Assembly (NCBI GenBank): GCA_049589215.1 | Contig: JBAWAI010000584.1 | Coordinates: forward strand, 1 to 60,865 | Source of the DNA: Terriglobales bacterium | GTDB taxonomy: Bacteria; Acidobacteriota; Terriglobia; Terriglobales; Acidobacteriaceae | DNA length: 60,865 bases | Direction of reading: 5' to 3' | Shown: piece after piece, positions 2,553 to 26,858 of the stretch | How the letters are laid out: the number at the start of each line of letters is the position of its first letter | How positions within the stretch are numbered: the first letter of the stretch is position 1 | Program-made: the position numbers and the translations under genes | Notes under the pieces: generated by a model | Databases searched by the model: none | Told to the model about the DNA's origin: nothing | The model's input: only the letters and a program-made list of their open reading frames with translations

Positions 2553-2735
2553 AAATCCTCCTTGTTTGTGCGCGGCAACCGGTATCGATCGAGGAAGACC
2601 GACGTCGTTATTGCCGCTTTCAAGATGTAAAGCGTGGGTTTGGGGAAAAGCCCGCCACGTGAGACGGGGAAAAGGTGTAGGCGCATTTCCCACCTAGAGA
2701 TTTCGCAGGAGCAATCCGGGATAGGTTGTGCTAAT

Positions 2736-3350
2736 ATGCTCACCCAAGATGAGGCAGTTATGGCCGGGCCAGATGCAGAGATCACACGGCTATTGCATCG
2801 CTGGAAAAACGGCGACCAAGAAGCCGAAGCAAAGTTATTTGAACTGGTATTGCCTCAGCTGCGCCTGCTGGCCGCACGCTACCTGCGCCGGGAGCGGAGC
2901 GGGCACACCCTTCAGCCCACCGCTCTAGTCAACGAGGCGTTTCTTCGACTGGCCGCCGCCAAGAGCGTAGATTGGCGGGATCGCGGGCATTTTCTGGCTC
3001 TGGCCGCGAGAGTAATGCGCCGTTACCTGATCGACCATGCGCGCGCTCGTCCCGATGTGCATTTTCTGGCCCTGGAAGGTATTCCCGAATATGTATTGAG
3101 TAACCGCACCAAGCTGGAGTTAGTGGTGGCGGTGGATGAGTTACTCAATGAAATGGCGAAGGAGTTTCCACAACGGCGCTCAGTGGTGGAGCTTAAGTTC
3201 TTTCTCGGCTTGACAGATGAAGAAGCAGCAGATGCGCTAAGCCTGAGCCTGCATACCTTTCAGCGGGAGTGGTACCGGGCGCGCCGGTGGCTTTTTGAGC
3301 GATTGAGTACAAAGAAATGGAACGGAGTGTCGAAGGCGATCGGGGCTTGA
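2736..3350 (+). CDS. ECF-type RNA polymerase sigma factor of the kinase-associated class (TIGR02999-like, ECF43-like from memory)
   Basis: N-terminal signature ITRLLHRWKNGDQEAEAKLFELV...HTLQPTALVNEAFLRL and a region-4 HTH (LGLTDEEAADALSLSLHTFQREW). Start taken at ATG 2736 (MLTQDE); the upstream ORF extension looks non-coding. Confidence 0.85.
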   Translation: MLTQDEAVMAGPDAEITRLLHRWKNGDQEAEAKLFELVLPQLRLLAARYLRRERSGHTLQPTALVNEAFLRLAAAKSVDWRDRGHFLALAARVMRRYLIDHARARPDVHFLALEGIPEYVLSNRTKLELVVAVDELLNEMAKEFPQRRSVVELKFFLGLTDEEAADALSLSLHTFQREWYRARRWLFERLSTKKWNGVSKAIGA

Positions 3351-5998
3351 TGGAGCTGGTTGCGGCTGCGCTGCAACAACCGGCTGAGTTGCGCGAATCC
3401 TACCTATGCGACGCCTGCGGGGACAATACACAACTACTCCAGGACGCCACTGACCTGCTCAGGGGCGAAGAAGAGATGGGGTCTTTCCTGCTGCATCCCG
3501 CGATTGCATTTCAGGAATATCCACGCCCATTTCAATCGGGACAGACGGTGCTGGAACGCTTTGAGGTCACGCGCGAGATCGGGGAAGGCGGAATGGGGAT
3601 CGTGTATGAGGCCTTCGACCGGAAGGTGCACAAGCGGATTGCGATCAAGGCAGCAAAGCCGGGGTTTCAAACGCGACTGTCGCCGGAGATCGAAAGCGCG
3701 CTGGAGGTGACGCATCCGAATATTTGCCGGGTCAACGAAATCTACACCGCGCAGACGGAGCACGGCGAAGTTGATTTTCTGACGATGGAGTTTCTGGACG
3801 GGAATACGCTGACCTCTTATCTGGGAAGCGACGCGAAAATTCCGGAGGCGGAAGCGTTTGAAATTGCGCGCCAGCTTTGCGAGGGACTTGCGGAGGCGCA
3901 TCGCCGGGGCATTGTGCATCGCGATCTGAAGACCGGAAATGTAATCGTCTGCCGGAACCGCAAGAATGGACTGCGCGCGGTGATCACCGATTTTGGGCTG
4001 GCGGGAGCGGACACTCAGCCGTGCGAACTAGGCGGCACGCCAAGATACATCGCGCCGGAATTGTGGACCGGCGGGCAGGCGTCGAAGGCATCGGATATCT
4101 ATGCGCTTGGGATTATTCTTTGCGACATACTTACGCGCACGTCGCACGATTCGCAGCCGCTCAATGATTTTGCCAGCAAGCTTTCTTCGGGCTTCGCGCC
4201 CGAGGCGGACGATTCCGGTCCGAAGACATTATTAAAGGGAGTGCACGGGCGGTGGGCGCGGACGATTCTGCGTTGTGTCGATCCGCTACCGGAGCGGCGA
4301 CCGGCGGACGTGAGTGAAGTGATGGCGGGGCTGAAACCGCCGTCGCGATTGAGGCTGGTGCCTCTTTCGGTTGTGGTTGTGGCGCTGGCGGCGATGGCGT
4401 TCCCTGGTGTTCGCGGGCGAGTGCATGATGAGTTCTGGCCACCGCCAAGTGTGCGGCTGGTGGTGCTGCCCGCATCGGTTTCGGCGGGAATGAGGGTTGA
4501 CTCGGGCGGTGCTTTGCAGGACGCCTCAGACCGGATCTCGCATTTGACGGCGGAACGGCGCACGGTGGCGGTAATTCCGCCGTCGAAGGCGCGGGAGATG
4601 CAGATCCGAACTCCGGAACAAGCGCAGCAGCGCGTACACGCCACACACGCGCTAGAAACGACGATGCGCCAGGACGGCGACGATTGGGTAGTGACCGGCG
4701 CGGTCATCGATTTGCAGACGCAGAACCACCTGCGGGATTTTTCCGCGCGCTACTCGAAGACGACACTGGGAGCTTTGCCGGAAGCGCTGGCCGGCGAAGT
4801 ATCGAACGCACTCGACCTGCGCGGCAAACCGAGCGAAGTTATTTCGCCGGCGGCGACGGAATCTTACGATCGCGGACTTTATTATCTTCGCCCTGAATCG
4901 CGGAACGTGGATGAGGCGATCCGCGGATTTGAAGAAGCGAGCCGCCTTGATCCGCGGTCGGCGTTGCCGTTGGCCGGACTGGTGGAGGCCGAACTCGACA
5001 AGTTCGATGAGACGGGTGCGCCGGAGCATATGAAGCAGGCGGAAGCAAACCTGCAACTGGCGGAGAACCTTGATCCGGATGCGGTGAGCGTGCATCTGGC
5101 GTCGGGCTTATTTAACGAAGCCCGAGGACAAAACGCCCAAGCTATCGACCAGTACGAGCGGGTGGCTAACCTTGAGCCGCGGAATGTGTATGCTTTGATC
5201 CGGATTGCGGGCGTGTACGACAAAGAGAATATGCCGGAGCGGGCGATTACTACTTACCGGCAGGCGGTGAAACTGGATCCATCGTTTTACGATCCGCACG
5301 AATATTTCGGTGTGTTTTATTTTCATCGCGGCCGATATGAGGAGGCGGCGGAAGAGTTTCAGCGGGTGATCGACCTGGCGCCCGGAGTGTATAACGCATA
5401 CACGAATCTGGGAGCGTCGCTGGAAAAGTTGGGGAGGGTCGACGATGCGGTTAAAACGTTGCAGAGTTCGCTGGCGCTACGAGAGACGCCGCGAGCGCTG
5501 AACAATATGGGCGATCTCTTGTTTTCCAACACCCGGTTTGCGGAGGCGCTGACTTATTTGCAGCGGGCATCGGCGCTTACGCCGAACGATTACGTGATTT
5601 TGCTCAACCTCGGAGATACGAACCGTCATCTGGGAAACATGAAAGAGGCAAAAGCGGATTATCGAAAGGCGAAGACTTTCGCGTTGGCGGAATTGAATCA
5701 GAATCCGAGGAGTGGGTATCCACGGGCGGTGGTAGCTTACTCGTCGGCGCGCTTAGGAGATAAAAAGCGAGCCGAAGATGAGATTGGGCAGGCACTGCGA
5801 ACGGCTCCCGAGGACAATACGGTGATTCATCGCGCGGTGCTGACCTATGAAGTGCTGGGCTTGCGGGCGGAAGGGCTGACGGTGCTGAATGGGGCGACGC
5901 CCGACCTGCTGCGCAGCCTGGAAAAAGACCCCGACCTGGCGGACTTTCGCCAGGATTTACGCTTTAGACAGTTAGTGGGAAGAAATTCAACGCAGTAA
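3350..5998 (+). CDS. Hanks-type Ser/Thr protein kinase with one TM helix and a C-terminal TPR domain
   Basis: GEGGMGIVYEA, AIK, HRDLKTGN, DFG and GTPRYIAPE motifs. TM segment LVPLSVVVVALAAMAFPGV. TPR-like repeats in the C-terminal half. ATG 3350 shares its A with the sigma-factor TGA (TGATG); the alternative in-frame start is 3317. Confidence 0.9.
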   Translation: MELVAAALQQPAELRESYLCDACGDNTQLLQDATDLLRGEEEMGSFLLHPAIAFQEYPRPFQSGQTVLERFEVTREIGEGGMGIVYEAFDRKVHKRIAIKAAKPGFQTRLSPEIESALEVTHPNICRVNEIYTAQTEHGEVDFLTMEFLDGNTLTSYLGSDAKIPEAEAFEIARQLCEGLAEAHRRGIVHRDLKTGNVIVCRNRKNGLRAVITDFGLAGADTQPCELGGTPRYIAPELWTGGQASKASDIYALGIILCDILTRTSHDSQPLNDFASKLSSGFAPEADDSGPKTLLKGVHGRWARTILRCVDPLPERRPADVSEVMAGLKPPSRLRLVPLSVVVVALAAMAFPGVRGRVHDEFWPPPSVRLVVLPASVSAGMRVDSGGALQDASDRISHLTAERRTVAVIPPSKAREMQIRTPEQAQQRVHATHALETTMRQDGDDWVVTGAVIDLQTQNHLRDFSARYSKTTLGALPEALAGEVSNALDLRGKPSEVISPAATESYDRGLYYLRPESRNVDEAIRGFEEASRLDPRSALPLAGLVEAELDKFDETGAPEHMKQAEANLQLAENLDPDAVSVHLASGLFNEARGQNAQAIDQYERVANLEPRNVYALIRIAGVYDKENMPERAITTYRQAVKLDPSFYDPHEYFGVFYFHRGRYEEAAEEFQRVIDLAPGVYNAYTNLGASLEKLGRVDDAVKTLQSSLALRETPRALNNMGDLLFSNTRFAEALTYLQRASALTPNDYVILLNLGDTNRHLGNMKEAKADYRKAKTFALAELNQNPRSGYPRAVVAYSSARLGDKKRAEDEIGQALRTAPEDNTVIHRAVLTYEVLGLRAEGLTVLNGATPDLLRSLEKDPDLADFRQDLRFRQLVGRNSTQ

Positions 5999-11475: not shown

Positions 11476-12069
11476 TCAAGGTTGCTTCCTCGCTAAAATT
11501 GCGAAAGAGAGTTTTATTTCGTCTTTGAGTTTGACGGTGCCGCCAGCGGCGGTTACCGGCTGAATTTCATAATCGCTCAGGCGGACGGAAAAATCTCCGG
11601 ACGCGCGGAGCGTATCGCCGTTTATGGAGACCCGCGTGGAGACTGGTTGACCGCGCTTGACTCCGTGCATTGTGAGATCGCCGGCGAGCGCGACCCAGTA
11701 TTGGCCTTCTCCGGTTTTGCTGGCGATGACGCTGGAACACTCGTAGACGATATCGGGAAAAGAGTCGACTTCCAAAACCTCGTCGTGCATGCGACGGTTG
11801 ATTTCGTCGTGATCTTTAGCGCTGATATCGTCGGTATCGTTGAGAGATGCCGCGTGAATTATCATGCGCAGCGAACTTTGCTCGAGTGCGTCGGGATTGA
11901 GAAGGATTTCACCCTCGAAATCAGGGAGTTCGATGGTTGGACTGTGAGCGAACGCGGAAAGCATTCCGGCGGCAAACGCGCGCGCGGTAAAGGCACTCCC
12001 GTTGGTTTTAATCGAGTAGTGAAGCGTGGTTCCCTCCGGCGTTATCGCGGGTTCGGCAGCGTAATGCAC
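11476..12069 (-). CDS. YceI-like (polyisoprenoid/lipid-binding beta-barrel) protein, no signal peptide, paralog 1
   Basis: YceI-type C-terminal pattern (LTMHGVKR...ASGDFSVRLSDYEI...VKLKDEIKLSF). GTG start has GGGAGG 8 nt upstream. The N-terminus is not hydrophobic. Confidence 0.7.
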   Translation of the reverse strand: MHYAAEPAITPEGTTLHYSIKTNGSAFTARAFAAGMLSAFAHSPTIELPDFEGEILLNPDALEQSSLRMIIHAASLNDTDDISAKDHDEINRRMHDEVLEVDSFPDIVYECSSVIASKTGEGQYWVALAGDLTMHGVKRGQPVSTRVSINGDTLRASGDFSVRLSDYEIQPVTAAGGTVKLKDEIKLSFAILARKQP

Positions 12070-12113: not shown

Positions 12114-12683
12114 CTACTCCGGCTTGCGAGCGACTATGTAAAACGTAAATTTCAGCTCGTCCTGAAGCTTTAAAGAACCGCCGGCAATCGAGGCGATCCG
12201 AATGTCGTAATCGCTTTGCAACAGCGTGAACGTCCCAAAAACGCGAGCCGTATCAATCCCCATAGCCGCTTGAGCTTCGAAGCCTAAGTCGCTGGAAACT
12301 CCGTGCAGCATCAATCTACCACTCACCTTGATACGGTAAAGATCGTCTTTCAGTTTCTCAGCCGCTATGCCGGTGCTCTCGTACGCGACCTCCGGGAAAC
12401 GCTGCGTTTCCAGCACCTCCTTATTCATCACACGATGGATTTCGCGTCGATCGTCATCGCGTAACTCATCTAGAACTTCGAGGGATGCGGCTTTCACCCG
12501 GACCCGGAGAGAGGCATCCTGCAGCTTATTTGATGACATCTGAACCTCGCCCGTCCAATCGCGAATCGCAATCTTCGGGCTATGTGCGACAGCCGCGATC
12601 AGCCCGCTCGCGAAAGCCTGCACAACAAACTGGCTCGCCCTTGTATCAGCCGAGTAACAAATTCTGTCAGCACCGGTCGCCAT
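12114..12683 (-). CDS. YceI-like protein, no signal peptide, paralog 2
   Basis: Aligns by eye with paralog 1 (AFASGLIAAVAHSP / AFAAGMLSAFAHSP; LMLHGVS...TFTLLQSDYDI...LKLQDELKFTF). ATG 12683 has GGAGG 8 nt upstream; the ORF-track start 12737 lacks an SD. Confidence 0.7.
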   Translation of the reverse strand: MATGADRICYSADTRASQFVVQAFASGLIAAVAHSPKIAIRDWTGEVQMSSNKLQDASLRVRVKAASLEVLDELRDDDRREIHRVMNKEVLETQRFPEVAYESTGIAAEKLKDDLYRIKVSGRLMLHGVSSDLGFEAQAAMGIDTARVFGTFTLLQSDYDIRIASIAGGSLKLQDELKFTFYIVARKPE

Positions 12684-12768
12684 CGAAGTAACCTCCGGGC
12701 CCTGAGAATAACATGCAAAAGCAGTCCCGTAACTCATCCGATTAATGCGATCCGTCCTGACCAGCTTG

Positions 12769-12999: not shown

Positions 13000-13869
13000 T
13001 TACTGGGTTGAACAGTTACCGACTGAAGAGTTACCGACTGAACCAGACTTATGTTTGTACAGAACCTTGTCGATCAACGATTTTACGAGTTTCACTGCCA
13101 CATCCACTGCGGCCTCAACGGCCGCGCTGAGCCCCATCTGACCTTCTTCGCCGCCGAGAGTTTCAGGTTCGCAACCGACGAGCAGAATATTCTTGACTTC
13201 GATGTTCATTGCCCGGGCCATGCGAAGCACGCTCATCGGATTCATGGAGTGCGCTTCGACGGTGGCCGGCGCGGCTGCGGAATCGTCAAGCGATTTCAAG
13301 TCGGGCTCAATAACGGAAAGCGTGCCAGCGGGCTGGCCGTGGGGGCAGGCGTCGACCAGAATGGTGGTTTCGTAGCCATCCTGCAGAGCGTAAGCGAGAT
13401 CGAAGCCGCGAATGCCGAAGTCGGTGACGCAGACTTCCGCGGGAAGTTCGAGGGCGGCGAGACGGCGTGCAACTTCGACACCGAAGGCGTCGTCACCGAG
13501 GAAGATGTTGCCGATTCCGGCGACCAGGATCGTGGGCTTTTGGACGGTTGAGACCGGCGGAAACTGGTCGGGTGGGAGCGGCTCGACTTCTTCCGCATCG
13601 AAAAAGAAGCGATGACCGGGCTGGCGAAGCATGCCCATGTCGCGGCCGGGATCCTGATCGAGGACCACACAGACGTGCTGCTTGCCTTCGTAGTCCTGCT
13701 CGATGCATTCGATGGTGGCAATCTGACCGGCGAGGGCGATGTCCATTACATCGCCGCCTTTGCGGGGATGAAGACGCACGCGGGATCCCTGGCGGACTGC
13801 GACGCCGGAAATTTCGAGATGATCGAGAGGAGTTTTTTCTTCGAGGAGTTGCCATTCCCATTCATTCAT
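13000..13869 (-). CDS. [NiFe]-hydrogenase maturation endopeptidase (HupD/HyaD family) with a ~100-aa N-terminal extension
   Basis: Protease core ILVAGIGNIFLGDDAFGVEVA...DFGIRGFDLAYAL...ILVDA starts near residue 115. The N-terminal part is a separate domain. Confidence 0.8.
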   Translation of the reverse strand: MNEWEWQLLEEKTPLDHLEISGVAVRQGSRVRLHPRKGGDVMDIALAGQIATIECIEQDYEGKQHVCVVLDQDPGRDMGMLRQPGHRFFFDAEEVEPLPPDQFPPVSTVQKPTILVAGIGNIFLGDDAFGVEVARRLAALELPAEVCVTDFGIRGFDLAYALQDGYETTILVDACPHGQPAGTLSVIEPDLKSLDDSAAAPATVEAHSMNPMSVLRMARAMNIEVKNILLVGCEPETLGGEEGQMGLSAAVEAAVDVAVKLVKSLIDKVLYKHKSGSVGNSSVGNCSTQ

Positions 13870-14960
13870 TGGGCCTCCTCCTGGGTGGAAGCGGAATCGA
13901 CCGGGCGCAAACCGCGCAGCACGCCGTGGAGTTTCATGAACTGTTCGACGGGCATAGATTCGGTGCGTTCGAGCATCTGGCGGGCGCGCTCGTCGGACTG
14001 GCTCATCTCGCGTTTTTCTTCGTCGGTGAGGGTCATGATGCGGAGAGAGAGAATTTCGTCGATCTCGGTGCCGTCGAAGAGATCGCCTGCGCTTTCGGGT
14101 GCGATCTTGGGATAGTCGTAAAGGATGATGGGCGAGGAGAGCAACGTGTCGTATTGGCCCTCTTCACCAACGAGCACGGGCCATGCGCCGACGTTTTTGC
14201 AGTCGGCAACGAGGGCGGCGAGGTGGTCGGGTGGGGCGAACAGCGAAATGAACTTCCCGTGATGAACGCCGAGGACGGTATGAGTTGAAACGAGCGAGCT
14301 TAGCAGGGCGTTTTCGCGGCTCGTCCGATCGGCGTCGGCGAATGGAGTGCGGTTGCGTATGCAAACTGTGACCTTGAAAAGGCCGTCCGCAACGCGCTCG
14401 CAACGGGTCTCGATTACGCCGCGAAGTTCACTCTGGTCGCGGATTATCACGCCCGCGGCGAGGCCTTGCGCATCCTTGAGATATTCGAATTCGCGGCTTG
14501 CGGGAAAGAGGAATGACTGCGACAGCGGCTTTGGCACGAGCGCATCGAGATTCGAGAGCGGCAAGATCACTTCGCGCTCTACCGCTTCCTGCCAGGGCTG
14601 ATAGACACGCCCCTCCATTGTTAGTTTGTCGACAGGGTGGTAGTCAGGCTTTTCATTCGGCGGTAAGTCGCTGATGCGCGCTGTCAGTTGGCCGACTGAA
14701 CGGGCGACCAACTGGAGAAAGCGAACGCGAACCTCTAGCGCGGGCGTTGAACCGACCTCGGAGTCAGCTTCGACCAGGCATTCGGTCTGCATGGTCCAAG
14801 CCTCGGTGCCGTTTTGCGCTTCGCTGTAGGACTGTGGACAGATGACGCCGAAGTTCCAGCGCTGCTGATTTTTCACCGACGATGGTCGGTAGGGATAAAG
14901 CATGTATCCCTCGTAGAGCACGGCTTTCGCGATCTGATTGACGGTCGCGAGATTCATCAC
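13866..14960 (-). CDS. Conserved hypothetical protein of group 1h hydrogenase clusters
   Basis: 364-aa ORF with 4-nt overlaps to both neighbours. N-terminus LYEGYMLYPYRPSSVKNQQRWNFGV recalled from Hhy-type clusters. No known function. Confidence 0.7.
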   Translation of the reverse strand: MMNLATVNQIAKAVLYEGYMLYPYRPSSVKNQQRWNFGVICPQSYSEAQNGTEAWTMQTECLVEADSEVGSTPALEVRVRFLQLVARSVGQLTARISDLPPNEKPDYHPVDKLTMEGRVYQPWQEAVEREVILPLSNLDALVPKPLSQSFLFPASREFEYLKDAQGLAAGVIIRDQSELRGVIETRCERVADGLFKVTVCIRNRTPFADADRTSRENALLSSLVSTHTVLGVHHGKFISLFAPPDHLAALVADCKNVGAWPVLVGEEGQYDTLLSSPIILYDYPKIAPESAGDLFDGTEIDEILSLRIMTLTDEEKREMSQSDERARQMLERTESMPVEQFMKLHGVLRGLRPVDSASTQEEAQ

Positions 14961-17113: not shown

Positions 17114-18910
17114 TCAAGGCTGGAGACCGAACATTGGTGAATGATGTGTCTCCAGAACCTTGCCATTGCCTAAATACATGTGCACGCCGCACGGCAGGCA
17201 GGGATCGAAGCTGCGCACCGCACGCATGATATCAATTCCCTTGAACTTGTCGGGACCGTTTTCCTCGAAGATGGGCGTATTCTGCACCGCGTCTTCGTAT
17301 GGGCCCGGCGTGCCGTAGATGTCGCGCGGGTTGGCGTTCCAAGGAGTTGGCGGATAGGGGTGGTAGTTCGCGATCTTGCCTTCTTTGATGACGACATGGT
17401 GCGAGAGCACGCCGCGAACTGCTTCGTGGAAGCCGCAACCGATGGCTTCCTCGGGGACCTTGAAGTCAGTCCAGGTTTTGGTGTGTCCGGCATGCAACTC
17501 GGCGAGCGCCTTCTCCATGAAGTGCAGCGCCGCGCAGGCGGCGTAGACCTGGAAGTAGGTGCGGGCCCGGTCGCGCTCGATGGCGTTGCTCCACTTGGGA
17601 ATCTTCCATTCGAATTCGACTTCAGGTAGCGAGGTCGTTTTTGGCAGGTACATCTTCACGCTGTGACCGGTGGATTTGATATAGCCGATGTCGACGAGGC
17701 CGGCGAGCGCGGTTGCCCAGAGGCGGGCAATTGGACCGCCGCCGGTATCCATAGCGAGGTGATCGCCGGTGCGCTTGTCGAGCCACCGCGGCGACATGAC
17801 CCAGGTGTATTTGCCGCCGAAGTCGCGCTTCTGCGGACGGGGAATGGTGGTCTGGTTCCAGGGATGATTCTTATCGACCGGATTGCCGAGGGGATCGGTC
17901 TTGACGAAGGTCTGCTGATTTTTCCACTCGTCGTAATACGAACTACCGAGGAGAATGCGGATGTTCAGGTTGATATCTACCAGATCGGTGGTGACGAGCT
18001 TGCCGTCGACGACGATGCCGGGAGTGACGAACATCTTGCGGCCCCACTCCGTCATGTTCTTGTATTGATAGTCGCAATAGTCGGGATCGTTGAACGATCC
18101 CCAGCAGGCGAGCAACACACGGCGGCGTCCAACCTCTTCATAACCGGGAAGCGCTTCGTAGAAGAAGTCGAAGAGGTCGTCGTGGAGGGGAACGACCTTC
18201 TTCATGAATTCGACATACTTCATGAGGCGGACGAGATAGTCGGTGAAGAGCTGGATGGTGGGCACGGTGCCGACGCCGCCGGGATACAGCGTAGACGGGT
18301 GGACGTGGCGGCCTTCCATCAGGCAGAACATCTCGCGCGTCATGCGGCTCATGACCAAGGCTTCACGATAGAACGATCCGGTAAAGGGATTGAGCGCGGT
18401 CATGATATCGGCGATGGTGCGGAAGCCGTGCAAACTGGAATGCGGCGCGGCGGTGGATTGCGCTTTCGCCCAGACCTTCGGGTTGGTCTCCTTGACCATC
18501 TGCTCGCAGAAGTCGACACCGACCAGATTGTCCTGGAAGATATTGTGATCGAACATGTACTCGGCGGCCTCGCCGAGATTGACGATCCATTCGGCAATCG
18601 GAGGAGGCTTGATGCCGAAGGCCATATTCTGCGCGTAAGTGGCGCAGGTGGCGTGATTGTCTCCGCAGATGCCGCAGATGCGGCTGGTGATGAAGTGGGC
18701 ATCGCGCGGGTCTTTGCCCTTCATGAAGATGCTGTACCCACGGAAGATGGAAGAAGTACTGTGACACTCGACGACGTGCCGGTTTTCAAAATCGATCTTG
18801 GTAAAGATGCCCAGGCTACCCACGATACGGGTGATCGGGTCCCAGTTCATTTCCACCAGATTTCCCTTTTTGCCGGGAAGATCTTTTGTCGGTGCGGTAA
18901 TCGTGCTCAT
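17114..18910 (-). CDS. hhyL: [NiFe]-hydrogenase large subunit, group 1h (high-affinity, Hhy/actinobacterial type)
   Basis: L1 motif TSRICGICGDNH and L2 motif SFDPCLPCGVH, followed by a 21-aa C-terminal extension of the kind removed by the endopeptidase. Confidence 0.92.
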   Translation of the reverse strand: MSTITAPTKDLPGKKGNLVEMNWDPITRIVGSLGIFTKIDFENRHVVECHSTSSIFRGYSIFMKGKDPRDAHFITSRICGICGDNHATCATYAQNMAFGIKPPPIAEWIVNLGEAAEYMFDHNIFQDNLVGVDFCEQMVKETNPKVWAKAQSTAAPHSSLHGFRTIADIMTALNPFTGSFYREALVMSRMTREMFCLMEGRHVHPSTLYPGGVGTVPTIQLFTDYLVRLMKYVEFMKKVVPLHDDLFDFFYEALPGYEEVGRRRVLLACWGSFNDPDYCDYQYKNMTEWGRKMFVTPGIVVDGKLVTTDLVDINLNIRILLGSSYYDEWKNQQTFVKTDPLGNPVDKNHPWNQTTIPRPQKRDFGGKYTWVMSPRWLDKRTGDHLAMDTGGGPIARLWATALAGLVDIGYIKSTGHSVKMYLPKTTSLPEVEFEWKIPKWSNAIERDRARTYFQVYAACAALHFMEKALAELHAGHTKTWTDFKVPEEAIGCGFHEAVRGVLSHHVVIKEGKIANYHPYPPTPWNANPRDIYGTPGPYEDAVQNTPIFEENGPDKFKGIDIMRAVRSFDPCLPCGVHMYLGNGKVLETHHSPMFGLQP

Positions 18911-18948: not shown

Positions 18949-20013
18949 TTAATAGGATCGTGGATGGTATCCCGTGGTGAGTTCCGCGCGGGGATGCCGC
19001 CACTTGGGTTCCTTGTTGACGGTGGCCTGGGTCAGGGAGCGCAAAGCACGAATGGCACGGCCATAAGCGCCAACCGCTGCGCTCGACACTTTGCCGCCAG
19101 GGGGTTCGTCCATGAAAGGCATGAATTTGTCCGGAAAGCCGGGCATGGTGCAGCCGATGCAGATGCCGCCGACGTTGGGGCAGCCGCCGATTCCGGCCAT
19201 CCATCCGCGTTTGGGGACGTTGCAGTTCACTACCGGGCCCCAGCAGCCGAGTTTCACGATGCATTTGGGGGAGCCGTAGACTTCGGCGAAGTCACCCTGC
19301 TCGTAATATCCGGCGCGATCGCAACCTTCGTGCACCGTCTTGCCGAAGAGCCACGTGGGACGAAGCTGATCGTCGAGTGGAATCATGGGGGCGAGGCCGG
19401 CTACCTGATAAAGAAGATAGAGGACGGTCTCCATGAAGTTGTCGGGCTGCACCGGGCATCCGGGGACGTTGACGATGGGCAGGCCGGCTTTTGATTTCCA
19501 GTCCCAGCCGAGATAGTCGGCGAGACCCATGGCGCCGGTAGGATTGCCTTCCATGGCGTGAATGCCGCCGTAGGTGGCACAGGTGCCGCAGGCCACGATT
19601 GCCAGAGCTTTGGGAGCGAGGCGATCGATCCACTCATTGGTGGTGATGGGCTGGCCGGTTTTTGGATCGGTGCCGAGCCCGGCCCAATAACCTTCTTTCT
19701 TGATTTTCTCGTTGGGAATCGAACCTTCGACGACGAGGACGAAGGGCTCGAGTTGACCTTTTTCGGCCATGTACCAGAATTTCATGAAGTCATCTCCGTT
19801 TTCGTAGGCGAGCACGGGATTGTGGAGATGCACCTTGGGAAGTCCGGGGATTGCTCCCAGGAGAACGTCTTCAATGCTGGGCTGAGTAGCTGCGGTGACT
19901 GAAACCGAGTCTCCATCACAGCCGAGACCGGCGGTGATCCAGAGAATGTGCACCTCGGCGACAGGCGAAGGTTTTTGCGTAACCCGACCGTACGGAACCG
20001 TTTCCGCTGGCAT
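18949..20013 (-). CDS. hhyS: [NiFe]-hydrogenase small subunit, group 1h, no Tat signal
   Basis: [42 protein letters not shown] and [13 protein letters not shown] FeS-ligand blocks. No twin-arginine leader. GAGAGGAG RBS. Stop lies 38 nt upstream of the hhyL start. Confidence 0.92.
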   Translation of the reverse strand: MPAETVPYGRVTQKPSPVAEVHILWITAGLGCDGDSVSVTAATQPSIEDVLLGAIPGLPKVHLHNPVLAYENGDDFMKFWYMAEKGQLEPFVLVVEGSIPNEKIKKEGYWAGLGTDPKTGQPITTNEWIDRLAPKALAIVACGTCATYGGIHAMEGNPTGAMGLADYLGWDWKSKAGLPIVNVPGCPVQPDNFMETVLYLLYQVAGLAPMIPLDDQLRPTWLFGKTVHEGCDRAGYYEQGDFAEVYGSPKCIVKLGCWGPVVNCNVPKRGWMAGIGGCPNVGGICIGCTMPGFPDKFMPFMDEPPGGKVSSAAVGAYGRAIRALRSLTQATVNKEPKWRHPRAELTTGYHPRSY

Positions 20014-20257
20014 AACTGCGTTCTCCTCTCAAACTTGACTTGCCAAGAACGAAGGCCAAAACTCCCAGGACAAAGTGCGCACACGTAAAGGAGAGTAAAG
20101 AGCGGTTCTCTCCGTGATCGCAATCGTCTCCCGAAGAGGCGTTTGTGTGCGGCGTTAGAATCAATCACTCGGAGGGTCGCCCACAAGCGGGAGCTTCACT
20201 TATTCAGATCAGTGGTATCGCTATTTCTGCTATGGGGGATTCCCTGATGGCGGCGGA

Positions 20258-20269
20258 GTAATAGATTAC
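20258..20269. promoter_or_regulatory. Perfect 12-bp palindrome GTAATAGATTAC flanked by GGCGGCGG direct repeats, in the hhyS upstream region
   Basis: Read directly from the sequence. It lies 245 nt upstream of the hhyS ATG and 48 nt downstream of the response-regulator stop. Confidence 0.35.
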
Positions 20270-20316
20270 GGGGTTGGCGGCGGGGAAATGGCTGGATTGG
20301 GGATGAGAGGAGACTA

Positions 20317-21027
20317 CTACGCGGTTTTTTCGTTCATGTTCCATTGAATGGCGCGCTGCATAAGTTCGCGCGAGCTGCGGAGCGATAGTTTTTCCTTGAT
20401 GTGGGCCTGGTAGGACTCGACGGTTTTGATACTGAGGTGAAGCTCTTCGGCGATCTGGCGGGTGCCGTGGCCCTCGCCGATGAGGCGAAAGACTTCGAGT
20501 TCGCGGTCGCTGAGGTCGGCGATGGAGGAGTTGCGCAGGGTTCCCGAGCCGGTAATGTAGTGCTTAAGCATTTTGTTTGCGATGCGGTCGCTGACGTAAA
20601 TTTCGCCGCTTAGAATGCGGCGGACAGCGACCAGAACTTTTTCGGTGGCCTCCTGCTTCATGATGTAGCCGTTGGCGCCGGCACGGAGGGCGCGCTCGGC
20701 ATAGATGGATTCATCATGCATAGAAAGGATGAGAACAGGCAGGGCAGGATGCGTGGTGCGGATGGTCTTCAGCAGATCGAGGCCGTCGGGGCCGTTCAGC
20801 GAGATGTCGAGGATGAGGACGTCGGGATGCGAGGAGGCGAGCACGTGAATGGCGCCGGTGGCCTCTTCGGCTTCACCACACACCACCAGATCGGCCTCAC
20901 GATTGATGAGCAGCGCCAGACCCTGGCGGACGATAGGATGGTCGTCAACGACCAGGATTCTTTGCTTCGCGACCGCGTGAGTTTGCGTCACGCGGGGTTG
21001 CGGCTTGTGGGTCAAATTCATAGTCAC
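20317..21027 (-). CDS. NarL/FixJ-family response regulator (REC + LuxR-type HTH)
   Basis: ILVVDDHPIVRQGL...LILDISL receiver domain. LSDRELEVFRLIGEGHGTRQIAEELHLSIKTVESY HTH. Confidence 0.9.
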   Translation of the reverse strand: MTMNLTHKPQPRVTQTHAVAKQRILVVDDHPIVRQGLALLINREADLVVCGEAEEATGAIHVLASSHPDVLILDISLNGPDGLDLLKTIRTTHPALPVLILSMHDESIYAERALRAGANGYIMKQEATEKVLVAVRRILSGEIYVSDRIANKMLKHYITGSGTLRNSSIADLSDRELEVFRLIGEGHGTRQIAEELHLSIKTVESYQAHIKEKLSLRSSRELMQRAIQWNMNEKTA

Positions 21028-21052
21028 TTCATTAGCGCGTCACGACGTTGCT

Positions 21053-22783
21053 TCATGGGCTCGAAGCCGCGCGCGGCAACACCGGAAACAGGCAAGTCAC
21101 GAGAGTTCCGCCGGTGGGGACGCGGCGGACCTCGAGCGAACCTCCGACCATGCGAGCCCGGTAGTTCATGAGTTGAAGCCCCATTCCTTTGTTGCCGGCA
21201 ACGTTGTTGCCGATGCCAGAGCCGTCATCCTGAATTGTAAGCGCTCCCTGCTGTTCGTCGGCAGCCAGACGAATAACGATCTGGCGGGCATGGCCGTGCT
21301 TGATGGCGTTATTGACGGCCTCGCGGGCAACATAATATAGATGCGTGGCGACCGTGTCGTCGTGGATGAGGACGGGACTAAAACACTGGAACCGGCAACT
21401 GACGCCGAATAGATCTTCCACCTCGCCTGCCCACTGTTGCAAGGCCGACATCAAGCCCTGGGCGTCGGAGACGACGGGCAGCAGGCCTCGGGCGAGTTCG
21501 CGCGTTTTGTAAATCGCCTCGTTGACGAGGCTTACGATTTTGGCAGCATCGCCCGCTTCGGCCAGGCCTTTTTCCATCAATTTCTGCTCCTGGACTTTGC
21601 TCATGAAGGCGATGCCCGTGAGATGCTGGCCGAGGCCGTCGTGCAGGTCCTGGCCGATGCGGCGCTGCTCTCGCGCGCTGATTTCGAGGATGGTTTTCTC
21701 CAGTTGCTTGCGCTCGGTAATGTCGCGAATCGCGCTGGAGACGAGCATGCCCTCTTCGGTTTCGAGCGGGCTGAGACTGATTTCAACCGGGAACTCGTGG
21801 CCGTCTTTGTGGAGGCCGGAGAGTTCTTCGCCGGCGGCGCCCATCGGACGCACGCGTGGCTCTTGAAAGAAATGCTGGCGGTGTTCGGGATGCTTCTGGC
21901 GGAGACGCAGCGGCACCAGCATTTCGAGGGGCTGCCCGAGAAGCTCTTCGCGGTGGTAGCCGAACAATTTTTCGACCTGCGCGTTGACGAGAACGATCCG
22001 GCCTTCACGATTCACGACTACGACAGCATCGGGCGCGGCTTCGAGCAGTCCGCGAAACTTGGCTTCGGCGCGTTTGCTGACGTTACGCTCCTCCTGCAAG
22101 GCCTCTTCGGTGCGCTTGAGATCGGTGATATCGAAGCCGACACCGTGAATGAACCAGGGCTCGCCGTCTGACTTGCGAATCATCTTGGCTTCGCAATGGA
22201 ACCAGAGGACCTCGCCGCTGCGAGAGACGACGCGATAGGCGGAACGGAGTGGATTGCCGGTGAGAAACATTTCTGCGGCTTCGGTGCTCCAGCGCTGCTT
22301 GTCGTCGGGATGAATGTGGCTGTACCAGCGGATGGGATCTTCGAGCCATTCTTCCTGGGAGAATCCGAGGGCGGCTTCGATCTGCGGGCTGACGTAAGCT
22401 TCGCCGATGCCGCGATCGAGGTACGCCATAAAGACTACAGCGGGAATCTGTTCTACGAGGGCGCGGTAGCGGGCTTCGAGGTTAGGGAGCTGAGGAGTAT
22501 CGGAGCTGAGTGGGTCGATTGCGGCACCCGGCGGCGATCCCGGTCGTGGATTTTTTTCGGGGTCCGGCGACCATGGCTTTTCGGACGCGGCGGGCGGATA
22601 TACGACGCGCCGCGCGGTTGCGGGATTCAGGTGATGAGTGAAGACGGCGGCGAGGCCGTGGAGAATTTCTTCAGCCTCGGAGGGGCTGAGATCGGGCTCG
22701 GCAACTGTCAGAGCACCATCTTTGCTCGAGGGTAAGGCGTCCGATTTGGGCTCGGCTTCTCTCATAGCAAAATTTCGAGTCAA
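21053..22783 (-). CDS. Soluble sensor histidine kinase: disordered N-terminus, two PAS domains, HisKA_3, HATPase_c
   Basis: No TM helix. PAS blocks run ~aa 105-225 and 243-357. H-box [16 protein letters not shown]. ATPase blocks NNAIKHG and DDGSGI. TTG start at 22783, or ATG at 22765. Confidence 0.88.
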
Positions 22784-22850
22784 TTCCAGTTCACCGAGAT
22801 CTCCACCACAAAAACAACTTCGAAGCTGCCGACCCGCTGGCGGGCGCAGA

Positions 22851-23870
22851 CTATTTGCCGGGCTTGCGCCAACTCGGTTCCTTGTTGAGCGACGCCTGCG
22901 TAAAGCGGCGCAAAGCGTGAATCGCGCGTCCGTAGGTTTGCACGGCGGCCGACGACAACAGAGAACCGGGCGGCTGATTCATGAAAGGCATGAACTTGTC
23001 GGGAAATCCTGGCATGGTGCAGCCGATGCAAATGCCGCCGACGTTGGGACAGCCGCCGATGCCACCCATCCAGCCACGCTTGCCCACGTTGCATTGCACG
23101 ACCGGGCCCCAGCAGCCGAGCTTGACGATGCAGAGCGGAGAGCCGTACTCGTCGGCGAACTGGGCCTGCTCGTAGAAACCGCCGCGGTCGCAACCTTCAT
23201 GCACAGTGTTGCCGAAGAGCCACCTGGGCCGCAAGGCCTCATCGAGCGGAATCATGGGCGCGCGGCCCGACGCCATGTGGAGGAGATAGAGAAGCGTCTC
23301 CATGAAATTGTCGGGCTGCACAGGACAGCCGGGCACGCAGACGATGGGAATGCCGGCGCGCGAGGTCCACTTCCAGCCGAGATAATCGGGCAGGCCCATG
23401 CAGCCGGTGGGATTGCCCTCCATGGCATGAATGCCGCCATAGGTGGCGCAGGTTCCAGCAGCAACTACGGCCCAGGCTTTGGGTGCGAGCCGATCGATCC
23501 ATTCACAGGTGGTGATGGGCTGGCCGGACTTGGGATCGGTGCCGAGGGATGCCCAATAGCCTTCGTCCTTATTATGTTCATTCGGAATGGAGCCTTCGAC
23601 CACCAGAATGAAGTTTTCCATTTTGCCGTCCGCGGCCTGGTGGAAGGGGCGCATGAAGTCATCGCCATTGGCGAGAGCGAGGAAGGGGTTGTGGAGCGTG
23701 ACTTTTGGGATCCAGGGAATCTGGCCGAGGAGAACATCTTCAATGCTGGGCTGAGTGGCGCCGGTCATGGCGATAGTGTCGCCATCGCAACCAAGGCCGG
23801 CGGTGATCCATAGGACGTCGATCTCGGCGATCGAGATCTCTGTTGCGCGGCGAATTTCGGCATTCACCAT
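22851..23870 (-). CDS. Orphan paralog of the group 1h hydrogenase small subunit (no adjacent large subunit)
   Basis: 339 aa, co-linear with HhyS. Shared blocks include [68 protein letters not shown] and [28 protein letters not shown]. Confidence 0.88.
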
Positions 23871-23934
23871 TGCGAGTTACTTTAGCGGAGGGCAGGAGAA
23901 GCGGCAAGTTCGAGGTTCGGGGTGGCAAACTGAG

Positions 23935-24396
23935 CTAGCGTCCGTGGGCGGCGCCGCCTCTTAGAGTTAAGCAGGTACTGGTGGCATGAGCTACCAGGCT
24001 GCCTTTTTCGTCGGTAACGCGGCACTCAACTAAGCCAGTGGTGCGTCCTTGTTTTATTACTTTGCCCTCTGCGGTAAGAGTTGCTTTCCAGATGGGCTTC
24101 AGGAAATTGATTTTCAGTTCGAGGGTAGTGAAGGATTCGCCCTCTGCCAAATTGGTGGCGTACGCGATGCCCATGGCGGCGTCGGCGATATCGCAGAGGA
24201 CACCGCCGTGGAGCGTGCCCATGGGATTGGCGTGCCGCGGGCCGGCATCGAGTTGGATGGTGGCTGATCCGGGCGAGACAGCGAGCAGCCGAAAACCAAT
24301 GAGTTCGGCGATGGGAGGCGGCGAAACCTTGCCGGCCAGTTGCGCTTGAATGCGGGCCAGCATGGTGGCGTTGCTGGTGGGCGTGGCTTCAGACAT
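23935..24396 (-). CDS. PaaI/YdiI-type hotdog-fold thioesterase
   Basis: 153 aa with NPMGTLHGGVLCDIADAAMG and a hotdog-like C-terminal half. Confidence 0.75.
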   Translation of the reverse strand: MSEATPTSNATMLARIQAQLAGKVSPPPIAELIGFRLLAVSPGSATIQLDAGPRHANPMGTLHGGVLCDIADAAMGIAYATNLAEGESFTTLELKINFLKPIWKATLTAEGKVIKQGRTTGLVECRVTDEKGSLVAHATSTCLTLRGGAAHGR

Positions 24397-24437
24397 ATCG
24401 GCGTCGGATCATGCGATGTAGATCAGTCGATCAAAGG

Positions 24438-24695
24438 TTATTCAATGTAGGTGTCGTCGATGTAGCACCAGCGCCAGTTTTCTCCGGGCTGAAAGGACTG
24501 GATGATGGGATGTTTGAGCTTGTTGAAGTGGGCGCGCGCATGTTTGTTTTTTGAAGAGTCACAACAGCCGACGTGGCCGCACTCAAGGCAGAGGCGGAGG
24601 TGCAGCCAGGTGTCTCCCATTTCTAGACATTCTTTGCAACCCTGGCCGCTGGGAGTGACTTTTTGGATGGTGTTCAGGTGCTTGCAGGTCGGCAT
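24438..24695 (-). CDS. UBP-type zinc-finger protein
   Basis: CKHL...CKEC...WLHLRLCLECGHVGCCDSSKNKHARAHF; 85 aa. Confidence 0.75.
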   Translation of the reverse strand: MPTCKHLNTIQKVTPSGQGCKECLEMGDTWLHLRLCLECGHVGCCDSSKNKHARAHFNKLKHPIIQSFQPGENWRWCYIDDTYIE

Positions 24696-24813: not shown

Positions 24814-25869
24814 TCATGCGGCCAGGATCTTATTGCGCAAGCCGCCATAGGCGAACGTCTTTACCATTTCCTTGTCGAAAAAGTCTTGCGGGAACCCCAT
24901 CTCGATCGCGCTGGCTTCATTCAACGCTTTGACCTGATCAGGGGTCAGCGACAATTCAAGACTGGCCAGGTTGTCCTGCAGTTGCGCGATGCGGCGAGCG
25001 CCGATGATCGGAATGATTGGGATGGCGCGGTAGCGCAGCCATGCCAGAGCGACTTGCGCGGGAGAGCGTCCGACCTGCTCGCTGACTTTTTGCAGCGCGG
25101 CGACGATGCGATCAGTGCGCTCGCCCGTACGCATGAAGGACTTGCTCATGTCGGTTGTGTAGCGGGCGTCTTTGTCCTTAGCGTCTTTCGCACTATTGCT
25201 CCCGGGATGATATTTGCCGCTGAGCAAGCCGCCGGCGAGTGGCGACCACGCGACCAGCCCGAGGTTGAAGGCCTTCGCCATGGGGATGAGTTCACGCTCG
25301 ACGGTGCGCTCGATGAGTGAGTACTCAAGTTGCAGGCCGATGAATTGAGTCCAGCCGCGGAGTTCGGCGAGCATATTGGCTTGCGCGATCCACCAGGCGG
25401 GAGCGTCGGAGACACCAATGTAGAGAACCTTGCCTTTAGTGACGAGGTCGTCGAAGGCGCGCATGACCTCTTCGACCGGAGTCATCTGGTCCCAGACATG
25501 CATCCAGTAAAGATCGATGTAATCGGTTTTGAGGCGTCGGAGTGAGGCTTCGACAGCTTGCACCATGCTCTTGCGGTGATTGCCGGAGGCGTTGGCATCG
25601 TCGCCGGGAGCGGCGTTGGTGTATTTGGTGGCGAGGACGACGGAGTTACGGTGATCGCGCATGAACTCGCCAAGGAAGGCTTCGCTGGTTCCGTTGGTGT
25701 AAAGGTTGGCGGTGTCGATGAAATTTCCACCCGCGGCGCGGTAGGCTTCGTAGATCTTGCGGGCTTCATCCTTGGATGACCCCCAGCCCCAGTCTTCTCC
25801 GAAGGTCATGGTGCCGAGGGAGATCTCGGAGACGCGGAGACCACTTTTGCCGAATAGACGGTAGTTCAT
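24814..25869 (-). CDS. Aldo/keto reductase
   Basis: MNYRLFGKSGLRVSEISLGTMTFG, IDTANLY, and a typical AKR length of 351 aa. GAGGTG precedes ATG 25869. The ORF-track extension to 26181 overlaps trxB. Confidence 0.88.
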   Translation of the reverse strand: MNYRLFGKSGLRVSEISLGTMTFGEDWGWGSSKDEARKIYEAYRAAGGNFIDTANLYTNGTSEAFLGEFMRDHRNSVVLATKYTNAAPGDDANASGNHRKSMVQAVEASLRRLKTDYIDLYWMHVWDQMTPVEEVMRAFDDLVTKGKVLYIGVSDAPAWWIAQANMLAELRGWTQFIGLQLEYSLIERTVERELIPMAKAFNLGLVAWSPLAGGLLSGKYHPGSNSAKDAKDKDARYTTDMSKSFMRTGERTDRIVAALQKVSEQVGRSPAQVALAWLRYRAIPIIPIIGARRIAQLQDNLASLELSLTPDQVKALNEASAIEMGFPQDFFDKEMVKTFAYGGLRNKILAA

Positions 25870-25928
25870 GTTCACCTCAATCAGCGATTTGGATTCTCGC
25901 GGCGCGCGCAACGATGCAAGCTTATTTC

Positions 25929-26858
25929 TTAGTGGCCTTCCTCTTCGAGATGCTTCTCTACTTCTAATGCCGCCATGCAGCCGGAGCCGGCAGCAGTGAT
26001 TGCCTGGCGGTAGCGGCGGTCCTGCACGTCGCCGCAGGCGAAAACCCCTGGAACTTTTGTGAAGACATTTTTGTGGGTGACGAGGTAGCCATCGTGGTCG
26101 GTTTCTAACTGCCCTTCGAATATTTTGGCATTCGGAATATGACCGATTCCGAGGAACATGGCGCTCGTCGGGAAGTCCCAACTGGCACCGGTTTTCAGAT
26201 TGCGCAGGCGCAGGGCCGTGACTTCCTTTTTGCCCACGTCGAGAACTTCGTCGACGACCGTGTCGTTGAGAAAAGCGATCTTTGGATTAGCTTGCGCGCG
26301 ATCGAGCATGATCTTTGAGGCACGGAATTGGTCGCGGCGATGGATGAGCGTGACTTTGCTGGCGAAGCGGGTCAGGAACGTGGCTTCTTCCATGGCGGAG
26401 TCGCCGCCGCCGATGACCGCGATTTCCTTGCCGGAGAAAAAGAAGCCGTCGCAGGTGGCGCAGGAGGACACGCCGTGTCCGATGAGTGCGTGCTCGCTCG
26501 GCAAGCCTAGCCAGCGTGCGGAGGCACCGCTGGCGACGATGAGAGTACGAGTCTGAACGACTTCTTTGCCGAAGGTCAACTCGATCGGTTGCTTGCTGAG
26601 GTCGGCTTTGCTGACGTGGCCGATGCGATATTCGGCGCCGAAACGGGTGGCTTGCTTGCGCATGTTCTCGACGAGTTCGGGTCCCTGAATGCCGTCGGGA
26701 AATCCGGGAAAGTTTTCGACCGAGGTGGTCATGGAAAGCTGGCCGCCGGGTTCGTGGCCTTCGATGACGAGTGGTTTGAGATTGGCGCGGGCGGAGTAGA
26801 GCGCGGCGGTGTGGCCGGCGCAGCCCGAGCCGATAATGACTACGTTGCGGATGTCCAT
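25929..26858 (-). CDS. trxB: Thioredoxin-disulfide reductase
   Basis: VIIGSGCAGHTAA FAD motif, CATCDG redox centre, GGGDSAMEEA NADPH motif; 309 aa. Confidence 0.92.
   Translation of the reverse strand: MDIRNVVIIGSGCAGHTAALYSARANLKPLVIEGHEPGGQLSMTTSVENFPGFPDGIQGPELVENMRKQATRFGAEYRIGHVSKADLSKQPIELTFGKEVVQTRTLIVASGASARWLGLPSEHALIGHGVSSCATCDGFFFSGKEIAVIGGGDSAMEEATFLTRFASKVTLIHRRDQFRASKIMLDRAQANPKIAFLNDTVVDEVLDVGKKEVTALRLRNLKTGASWDFPTSAMFLGIGHIPNAKIFEGQLETDHDGYLVTHKNVFTKVPGVFACGDVQDRRYRQAITAAGSGCMAALEVEKHLEEEGH

Follow-up and report, generated by a model that had tools for sequence, protein, structure and literature searches.

A hydrogenase small-subunit paralogue, a PAS histidine kinase and a NarL-type regulator as a conserved candidate signalling module upstream of the group 1h hydrogenase genes of Acidobacteriota

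A stretch of DNA of 60,865 nt from a Terriglobales bacterium (Acidobacteriaceae; assembly GCA_049589215.1, contig JBAWAI010000584.1), hereafter the window, carries hhyS2, an orphan paralogue of the small subunit of group 1h [NiFe]-hydrogenases, together with genes for a PAS histidine kinase (HK) and a NarL-type response regulator (RR), and these three genes probably encode a three-component signalling module for the transcriptional control of the adjacent structural hydrogenase genes hhyS and hhyL (hhySL). Among biological sinks for atmospheric H2, group 1h hydrogenases are the main one, and of the soil bacteria that carry them Acidobacteriota belong to the most abundant. We know of no organism in which the way these enzymes are switched on has been worked out, and, to our knowledge, no hydrogenase-derived regulatory candidate other than this module accompanies a group 1h operon. 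The order hhyS2-HK-RR-hhyS-hhyL, on a single strand, is found in approximately 66 of 80 species-level loci, which, together with operon-like gaps, marks hhyS2, kinase and regulator as one conserved module tied to hhySL. HhyS2 forms a clade of its own with invariant ligands for iron-sulfur (FeS) clusters, it is associated with one particular PAS domain of the kinase (PAS-A), and a palindrome is confined to a single position, between the RR gene and hhyS. The features of the region are listed below, with positions counted in the window and lengths in amino acids (aa), nt or bp.

22851-23870, minus strand: hhyS2, 339 aa; orphan group 1h [NiFe]-hydrogenase small-subunit paralogue, proposed FeS input subunit; Pfam Oxidored_q6 and NiFe_hyd_SSU_C
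21053-22783, minus strand: histidine kinase, 576 aa; variable N-terminus, PAS-A (PAS_3), PAS-B (PAS_9), HisKA_3 and HATPase_c by Pfam
22088-22486, minus strand: PAS-A domain of the kinase, approximately aa 100-232; constant partner of HhyS2
20317-21027, minus strand: response regulator, 236 aa; NarL/LuxR-type, REC and GerE helix-turn-helix (HTH) by Pfam
20014-20316, minus strand: RR-hhyS spacer, 303 nt, proposed to be regulatory
20232-20248, no strand assigned: palindrome ATCAGGGAATCCCCCAT, 17 bp, consensus ATCRGGGAWTCCCYGAT; candidate RR operator
20155-20192, minus strand: second conserved box, TCCCGCTTGTG ... TGATTCTAA; possible hhySL promoter elements
18949-20013, minus strand: hhyS, 354 aa; structural group 1h small subunit with an LTTGY tail, presumed regulated target
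17114-18910, minus strand: hhyL, 598 aa; Pfam NiFeSe_Hases, presumed target and possible shared partner of HhyS2

The kinase gene begins 67 nt past hhyS2 on the same strand, and the start of hhyS2 lies 3.86 kb upstream of that of hhyS, with the kinase and regulator genes in between. A preliminary description of this region, made from the DNA letters alone, had reported a full-length small-subunit paralogue that shares long identical blocks with HhyS and has no large-subunit gene beside it, a kinase with two PAS domains, HisKA_3 and HATPase and without transmembrane (TM) segments, a REC-LuxR regulator, and a spacer of about 300 nt ahead of hhyS-hhyL, all of which was borne out. Both small-subunit domains and the identical blocks are present in HhyS2; tblastn with HhyL gave a single match in the whole 60.9-kb window, hhyL itself at 17114-18910, and hence no second large-subunit gene; Pfam and hydropathy agree on the kinase, for which no TM segment is predicted (maximum 19-residue Kyte-Doolittle value, 1.1); Pfam finds REC and GerE/LuxR in the regulator, which by NCBIfam resembles NarL/UvrY/MctR-type regulators, below cut-off; and the spacer measures 303 nt.

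For the survey of loci, one genome per GTDB species was scanned with HhyS2, which yielded at least 599 confirmed matches; the best 80 were analysed, with synteny scored by tblastn of five window proteins (HhyS2, HK, RR, HhyS and HhyL) against these 80 loci. Almost all of the best 80 matches are labelled Acidobacteriota or sub-lineages (Acidobacteriaceae, Terriglobales, Sulfotelmatobacter, Korobacteraceae, Bryobacterales), and they include Edaphobacter aggregans (L036) and Tunturibacter empetritectus (L064); soil metagenomes hold thousands of close HhyS2 relatives (81-91% identity). Most exceptions to the shared gene order are contig ends, a kinase orthologue follows hhyS2 in nearly all 80 loci, and hhyL is beside hhyS2 in none of them. 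The hhyS2-kinase-regulator adjacency, which the preliminary description had wished to see checked across Acidobacteriota, is thus conserved in related genomes. The gaps between the genes (hhyS2 to HK, median approximately 40 nt; HK to RR, typically -4 to +12 nt; RR to hhyS, 185-500 nt in most loci) look operon-like, followed by what appears to be a regulatory region. Conservation stops upstream of hhyS2, where not even the nearest relative (L001) has the same genes, which makes hhyS2 the 5' edge of the island. In a Blastocatellia metagenome-assembled genome (MAG; L081), a small-subunit gene lies 21 nt upstream of the gene for a PAS-A protein that is cut by the contig end, with unrelated genes further upstream. 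The module was not found in the group 1h plasmid loci of Cupriavidus, Methylocystis, Mycobacterium, Kitasatospora, and Streptomyces, in which small subunit, large subunit, hhyE, DUF5947, and DUF6084 are present; the record of a further outgroup, Streptantibioticus, comes without annotation.

Some records in this survey carry doubtful labels or broken genes. Locus L025 (DASRWO010000132.1) is labelled Candidatus Deferrimicrobiaceae and looks acidobacterial, and a PAS-A protein, P0186, is labelled Gemmatimonadales; the genes of both are 77-91% identical to acidobacterial ones, which may reflect mis-binning or a real transfer outside Acidobacteriota, and the contig location of P0186 was not found. 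In L041, L057, L075, L023, L037, L044, L066, and L077, MAGs mostly of the MFD series, hhyS, hhyL or the kinase gene is recovered in at least two tblastn pieces; these split genes are probably assembly frameshift errors rather than pseudogenes. RefSeq/PGAP calls group 1h small subunits "hydrogenase expression protein HypE", a systematic misannotation that affects the outgroup records L082-L085 and L087 (NZ_CP092970.1, NZ_CP012886.2, NZ_CP108290.1, NZ_CP023408.1, and NZ_CP039289.1).

With regard to the identity of HhyS2, the protein is 76% identical to the HhyS of the window (247/324, zero gaps), and Pfam assigns its two domains, Oxidored_q6 and NiFe_hyd_SSU_C, with E-values of 3.7e-22 and 1.6e-21, respectively. 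Its best match in the PDB is HofK (5aa5_A; E 2.4e-174; 72.8% identity by tblastn), with the next best at E 7e-45; no NCBIfam model reaches its cut-off for HhyS2, for HhyS or for the outgroup 1h small subunits. The ligand set for three [4Fe-4S] clusters is present (C28, D31, C141, C182, H224, C227, C247, C253, C260, C274, C281, and C284), and the motif of the Cys3Asp proximal site (GCDGD ... GTC ... PGC) is kept. In a clade alignment of 80 HhyS2, 65 HhyS and HofK (PDB 5AA5), eleven motif Cys are invariant in both clades, and Asp31 and His224 are invariant in a separate 31-sequence alignment; the Cys and Asp ligands that had been seen in the window are thus kept across orthologues, and from their invariance we infer that HhyS2 still binds three FeS clusters.

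In pairwise comparison, sequences of the same clade are on average 86.7% (HhyS2) or 89.4% (HhyS) identical, HhyS2 and the HhyS of its own genome share 73.5% on average (70-77%), and HofK is nearer to HhyS (78%) than to HhyS2 (72%) in the clade alignment; HhyS2 retains, at >=95%, 135 of the 156 sites at which structural 1h small subunits are universally conserved. A neighbour-joining tree (100 replicates) that included six outgroup group 1h subunits and the Blastocatellia sequence, with group 2b sequences absent, recovered HhyS2 plus the Blastocatellia sequence as one clade in 100/100 replicates, and acidobacterial HhyS likewise in 100/100; the phylogeny proposed in the preliminary description therefore does set HhyS2-like copies apart. 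With regard to the root of the duplication, 60/100 replicates joined HhyS to proteobacterial subunits, and 25/100 joined the Acidobacteriota copies to each other. By these figures, HhyS2 is a distinct and constrained clade, apparently under strong purifying selection. That hhyS2 could instead be a decaying or functionless duplicate, next to two-component genes by an accident of lineage, would agree with the undetected hhyS2 transcript in E. aggregans (PMC8027828); intact open reading frames (ORFs) in 80 species with a mean identity of 86.7%, invariant ligands and fixed derived residues, and a synteny that spans Terriglobia, Bryobacterales-labelled MAGs and a Blastocatellia MAG make decay scarcely credible, and on these conservation data the idea of a pseudogene was rejected.

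Several residues separate the two clades. The states G53W, V63F, I100N, L133W, Q199M, L203R, A230G, K246L, P263G, E299Q, and R318H are derived and fixed in HhyS2, and G53W replaces a Gly that is conserved universally in structural 1h subunits. Cys122 (TTCEW) is present in 99% of HhyS2 versus 3% of HhyS, and Cys178 (IVCVPGC; N178C), which sits four residues ahead of the proximal-cluster ligand Cys182, in 97% versus 0%. The preliminary description had listed these two gains along with a Cys lost from VACGTC and another gained in TGCMG; Cys122 and Cys178 do define the clade, but the other two changes are not diagnostic and were rejected as sensor signatures, as the "lost" residue is Cys in only 65% of HhyS and Ala in HofK, and the "gained" one occurs in 54% of HhyS and in HofK.

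A further marker is the C-terminal tail. LTTGY closes the 65 acidobacterial HhyS, and among the six outgroup subunits, five end in LTTG(Y/L) or RTTGY and that of Streptantibioticus in LTSGY, a set that covers Acidobacteriota, Actinomycetota, and Pseudomonadota. All aligned HhyS2 have lost LTTGY and carry a short variable basic tail after WR instead, which extends to the whole clade what had been noticed in the window. Two things that catalytic members have are thus missing from HhyS2: hhyL next to its gene (in the window and in the 80 loci) and the LTTGY tail. An AlphaFold2 (AF2) model of HhyS2, with a mean predicted local distance difference test score (pLDDT) of 61 and the FeS domain unmodelled, was used for secondary structure only; at this low confidence, Cys122 falls in helix 121-131, at its first turn, and Cys178 in strand 177-179.

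The part of the kinase that accompanies HhyS2 most faithfully is PAS-A. As mean pairwise values over 64 orthologues, identity is 26% in the N-terminal 95 residues, 81% in PAS-A, 82% in the dimerization and histidine phosphotransfer (DHp) domain, and 58% in the catalytic and ATP-binding (CA) domain; no other sensory part of the kinase is as well conserved as PAS-A, and PAS-B is variable or replaced. The common architecture beside HhyS2 is PAS-A-PAS-B-HisKA_3-HATPase with a REC-LuxR regulator. Locus L056 (6929-9307) holds a minimal module of HhyS2 and a 419-aa PAS_3-HisKA_3-HATPase kinase, without PAS-B, an adjacent RR or nearby hhySL, and in locus L072 (6728-11699) an 854-aa PAS_3-GAF-PAS_9-HisKA-HATPase kinase and then a REC-HD (HD_5) regulator come after HhyS2. 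The pairing of HhyS2 with PAS-A therefore survives a swap of transmitter family and of output, as expected if HhyS2 is the input device of PAS-A. No four-Cys motif was found in PAS-A, which has one Cys (WFHC); the kinase has four in total, the rest in its catalytic half. Downstream of the L072 module lies a gene for a MHYT-PAS-SpoIIE phosphatase, and hhySL is absent within 7 kb.

A 17-bp palindrome with the consensus ATCRGGGAWTCCCYGAT is common to RR-hhyS spacers. The window copy, ATCAGGGAATCCCCCAT at 20232-20248, is the sole site at <=2 mismatches in 60.9 kb; the 9-bp core (<=1 mismatch) occurs in 55 of 63 spacers; and a search of both strands of 1.12 Mb of locus DNA placed all palindrome sites (52/52) between the RR gene and hhyS, with none in the outgroup 1h loci or in modules away from hhySL. 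A palindrome of this size fits a dimer of LuxR-type HTH domains, and its G-rich and C-rich arms are, we assume, reminiscent of the DosR box; we regard it as a candidate operator of the response regulator. No second palindrome that could serve as an autoregulation site was found upstream of hhyS2 in the window at <=3 mismatches. The module in L016, L032, L034, and L035 (past position ~10400) consists of hhyS2-HK-RR without hhySL in 4.5 kb and without the palindrome, and in L016 and L035 its neighbours are unrelated genes (MacB/FtsX in L016, TldD in L035).

A second box, TCCCGCTTGTG, lies 53-54 nt downstream of the palindrome, with TGnTTCTAW approximately 20 nt further on (20155-20192 in the window); it occurs (<=2 mismatches) in 45 of the 63 spacers, and its spacing to the palindrome is constant where both occur. 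This box may represent promoter elements for hhySL, a role that we propose with reserve because the sigma-70 scan does not score TCCCGCTTGTG and returned zero scored promoters in the RR-hhyS spacer. The combined sigma-70 and terminator scan of 19900-24500 found no terminator-like sites on the gene (minus) strand, its hits falling off that strand, and Rfam gave zero matches anywhere in the window. Upstream of hhyS2, TGTAGAATACGC, with a -10-like TAGAAT, is found in 19 of the 80 loci, and the window has at 23879-23907 (minus strand) a weaker sigma-70-like TTGCCG-17 nt-TAAAGT that ends 8 nt before the hhyS2 ATG and would leave almost no leader.

Such promoter-like sequences upstream of hhyS2, weak in the window and represented by TAGAAT in 19/80 loci, would also suit a role as an alternative catalytic small subunit, with which HhyL would form an isoenzyme for another acceptor or growth phase, while the kinase and RR sense something else; the retention of all FeS ligands, the high constraint, and the different expression of hhyS2 and hhyS in strain KBS 83 likewise agree with an isoenzyme. 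We nevertheless consider it improbable, since HhyS2 stays with PAS-A despite a different kinase core or output and even where hhySL is not nearby, has lost the LTTGY tail of every catalytic 1h small subunit examined, and is encoded by a gene that never adjoins hhyL or hhyE; moreover, group 1h loci outside Acidobacteriota manage without HhyS2. An isoenzyme role and gene decay are thus both unlikely.

The module has been on record for some time. Giguere et al. (2021; PMC8027828) noted an hhyS homologue module as a presumed sensory system of the two-component type and measured its transcription by RT-qPCR, and the statement in the preliminary description that no dedicated sensor had been described for group 1h enzymes was therefore too strong. 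Their SI-2 gives the loci as G002DRAFT_03432-03434 in KBS 83 and Q363DRAFT_01014-01016 in E. aggregans, with a homologue ~70.7% similar to hhyS that lies ~3.6 kb upstream of hhySL, the kinase and regulator genes coming after it; by their account, Greening et al. (2015, PNAS) are to be credited with an earlier sighting in Pyrinomonas methylaliphatogenes. In KBS 83, hhyS2 was transcribed in exponential phase (~128 copies per ng) and at a ~13-fold higher level in stationary phase, and in exponential phase transcripts of hhyL and hhyS2 were detected, with hhyS undetectable (PMC8027828). Cultured strains that carry the homologue have a single hhyL each (Eichorst et al., PMC5900883); the cognate large subunit elsewhere in the genome, which the preliminary description had named as the finding that would speak against a sensor, is thus not present in published surveys of these strains.

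Compared with the module of Giguere et al., that of the window is the same in gene order and paralogue identity (~70-76%) and differs in nothing in kind. Orthology with the published examples rests on E. aggregans DSM 19364 (L036); its proteins, encoded in the same order, are 85% (HhyS2), 58% (HK), 73% (RR), 90% (HhyS), and 86% (HhyL) identical to those of the window. Novelty is limited because the window module is another member of this recorded acidobacterial hhyS-homologue module, and what is new beyond the published note are the clade markers, the PAS-A association, the candidate operator and the breadth across 80 species; judged by gene order, the module is the rule in Terriglobia-type Acidobacteriota (80 species), beyond three isolates. 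In later literature, neither a functional study of the module nor an Hhy structure that explains the C-terminal tail was found.

Among known systems, the closest in logic are the group 2b H2 sensors HoxBC-HoxJ-HoxA of Cupriavidus necator and HupUV-HupT-HupR of Rhodobacter capsulatus, in which, as in the window, the gene for an FeS small subunit that has no export signal is grouped with those for a soluble PAS histidine kinase and a response regulator, beside uptake hydrogenase genes, and a hydrogenase-derived sensor controls hydrogenase genes (as proposed for the window). As the preliminary description had argued, the design is nevertheless different: the group 2b sensor is a heterodimer of small and large subunits encoded together, whereas the window module encodes a small subunit alone with no large-subunit gene adjacent, and the group 2b kinase is of the HisKA type and its regulator an NtrC-type sigma-54 AAA+ protein, whereas the window has a HisKA_3 kinase and a NarL/LuxR-type regulator (REC and GerE/LuxR) without AAA+. 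The lineage does not match either, as HhyS2 groups with 1h subunits (on 1h similarity and a tree without 2b sequences). The HoxB small subunit has an extended C-terminus, unlike the shortened one of HhyS2. With the structural group 1h subunits (HofK, PDB 5AA5; HhyS of mycobacteria, streptomycetes, and Acidobacteriota), HhyS2 shares the two domains and the cluster ligands; unlike them, it precedes a kinase carrying PAS-A and has neither an adjacent hhyL nor the LTTGY tail. Finally, NreB-NreC (Staphylococcus) and DosS/DosT-DosR (mycobacteria) resemble the window in combining a soluble PAS/GAF kinase built on a HisKA_3 core with a REC-LuxR regulator, and their regulators bind a palindrome; the cofactor of NreB or DosS/DosT, however, is housed in a PAS or GAF domain of the kinase itself, whereas in the window the FeS ligands are on a separate, hydrogenase-derived protein, and the window kinase lacks the four-Cys [4Fe-4S] site of the NreB PAS domain.

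As a mechanism, we propose that HhyS2 serves as a cofactor-bearing input subunit, with three FeS clusters and without the tail of catalytic 1h subunits, and that it would dock onto PAS-A of the soluble kinase; by analogy with HoxB-HoxJ, the redox state of its clusters would set kinase activity, and the phosphorylation state of the REC-LuxR regulator would decide whether this protein binds the 17-bp palindrome ~230 nt upstream of hhyS, and hence the expression of hhySL. The clusters may be reduced through the pairing of HhyS2 with part of the single HhyL, giving a high-affinity H2-sensing heterodimer that shares its large subunit. We regard HhyL-HhyS2 pairing as the most likely electron source, in view of the near-catalytic constraint on HhyS2, the single hhyL per genome, and the presence of hhyL and hhyS2 but not hhyS transcripts in exponential KBS 83. 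The full version of this proposal, in which most HhyL is bound to HhyS and a small pool joins tail-less HhyS2 to form an O2-insensitive high-affinity H2 sensor on PAS-A that controls hhySL via the NarL-type RR and ATCRGGGAWTCCCYGAT, is put forward tentatively, at somewhat less than even confidence.

A serious alternative, although in our estimate a doubtful one, is that HhyS2 has no large subunit and acts as a stand-alone FeS "wire" or thiol-redox protein that senses redox state or starvation via PAS-A, not H2, and that would equilibrate with the acceptor pool (HhyE, quinone) or react with O2. Such a protein would account for the absence of a large-subunit gene beside hhyS2 in 80 of 80 loci and for the six loci in which HhyS2 is paired with a PAS-A kinase and hhySL is not nearby, and the gained C122 and C178 and the aromatic changes G53W, V63F, and L133W could cap or remodel its surface. 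It agrees less well with the 135 of 156 universal sites that are kept, a near-catalytic constraint greater than FeS binding alone should need, or with the exponential-phase transcripts of KBS 83 (hhyL and hhyS2, not hhyS), which fit an HhyL-HhyS2 pair; moreover, a [NiFe] small subunit is usually not stable when its large subunit is missing. Reported induction of group 1h enzymes by carbon starvation rather than by H2 (PMC8027828), on the other hand, again suits a stand-alone sensor.

Several observations weigh against control of the adjacent hhySL by the module, or against H2 as its signal. In six loci (L016, L032, L034, L035, L056, and L072), HhyS2 occurs with a PAS-A kinase and hhySL is absent within 4.5-7 kb, so the target of the module need not adjoin it. 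The palindrome could belong to another transcription factor. In E. aggregans, the transcript of the homologue was undetected although hhySL was induced and H2 was consumed (PMC8027828). Atmospheric H2 is nearly constant, and an H2 signal would therefore be less obviously useful than a redox or starvation signal. The AF2 model is poor (pLDDT 61) and gives no positions for the clade residues with respect to the clusters or the interface with HhyL. In the mechanism above, we infer every physical interaction as well as the nature of the signal.

Beyond the module, the genes downstream of hhyL are NifU-like hhyE, DUF5947, DUF6084, a 364-aa hypothetical protein, and a HycI protease, the usual group 1h accessory set, followed by two YceI-like genes, HypD, HypE, a SIS protein, and HypB. 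The 364-aa ORF (13866-14960, minus strand) belongs to no Pfam or NCBIfam family, and similar unannotated "hypothetical protein" genes come after DUF6084 in plasmid 1h loci; the YceI-like genes (11476-12069 and 12114-12737, minus strand) form a tandem pair inside the hydrogenase cluster, with the HycI-type protease on one side and HypD on the other. Upstream of hhyS2, an 85-aa protein (24438-24695, minus strand) is made up of a zf-UBP zinc finger, which is familiar chiefly from the ubiquitin hydrolases of eukaryotes, and has a homologue upstream of hhyS2 in L080 only. The longest aldo/keto-reductase ORF (24814-26181, minus strand) overlaps a thioredoxin-reductase-like ORF (25929-26858, minus strand) by ~250 nt; its true start is probably further downstream because the Pfam match begins at residue 119. 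At 2634-3350 (plus strand), an ECF sigma factor gene overlaps the start of a gene at 3317-5998 (plus strand) for an 893-aa Ser/Thr kinase with a long TPR array.

What was a published remark is now split into parts, namely an input protein marked by Trp53, Cys122, Cys178, and the loss of its tail, a candidate docking domain in PAS-A, and a candidate operator at 20232-20248. If HhyS2 does share HhyL, an H2-sensing hydrogenase would have evolved a second time and independently, from group 1h instead of group 2b; it would be the first with a shared catalytic subunit and would represent a new way of building an H2 sensor. If HhyS2 needs no large subunit, a hydrogenase subunit would have been converted into a redox sensor that acts by itself.

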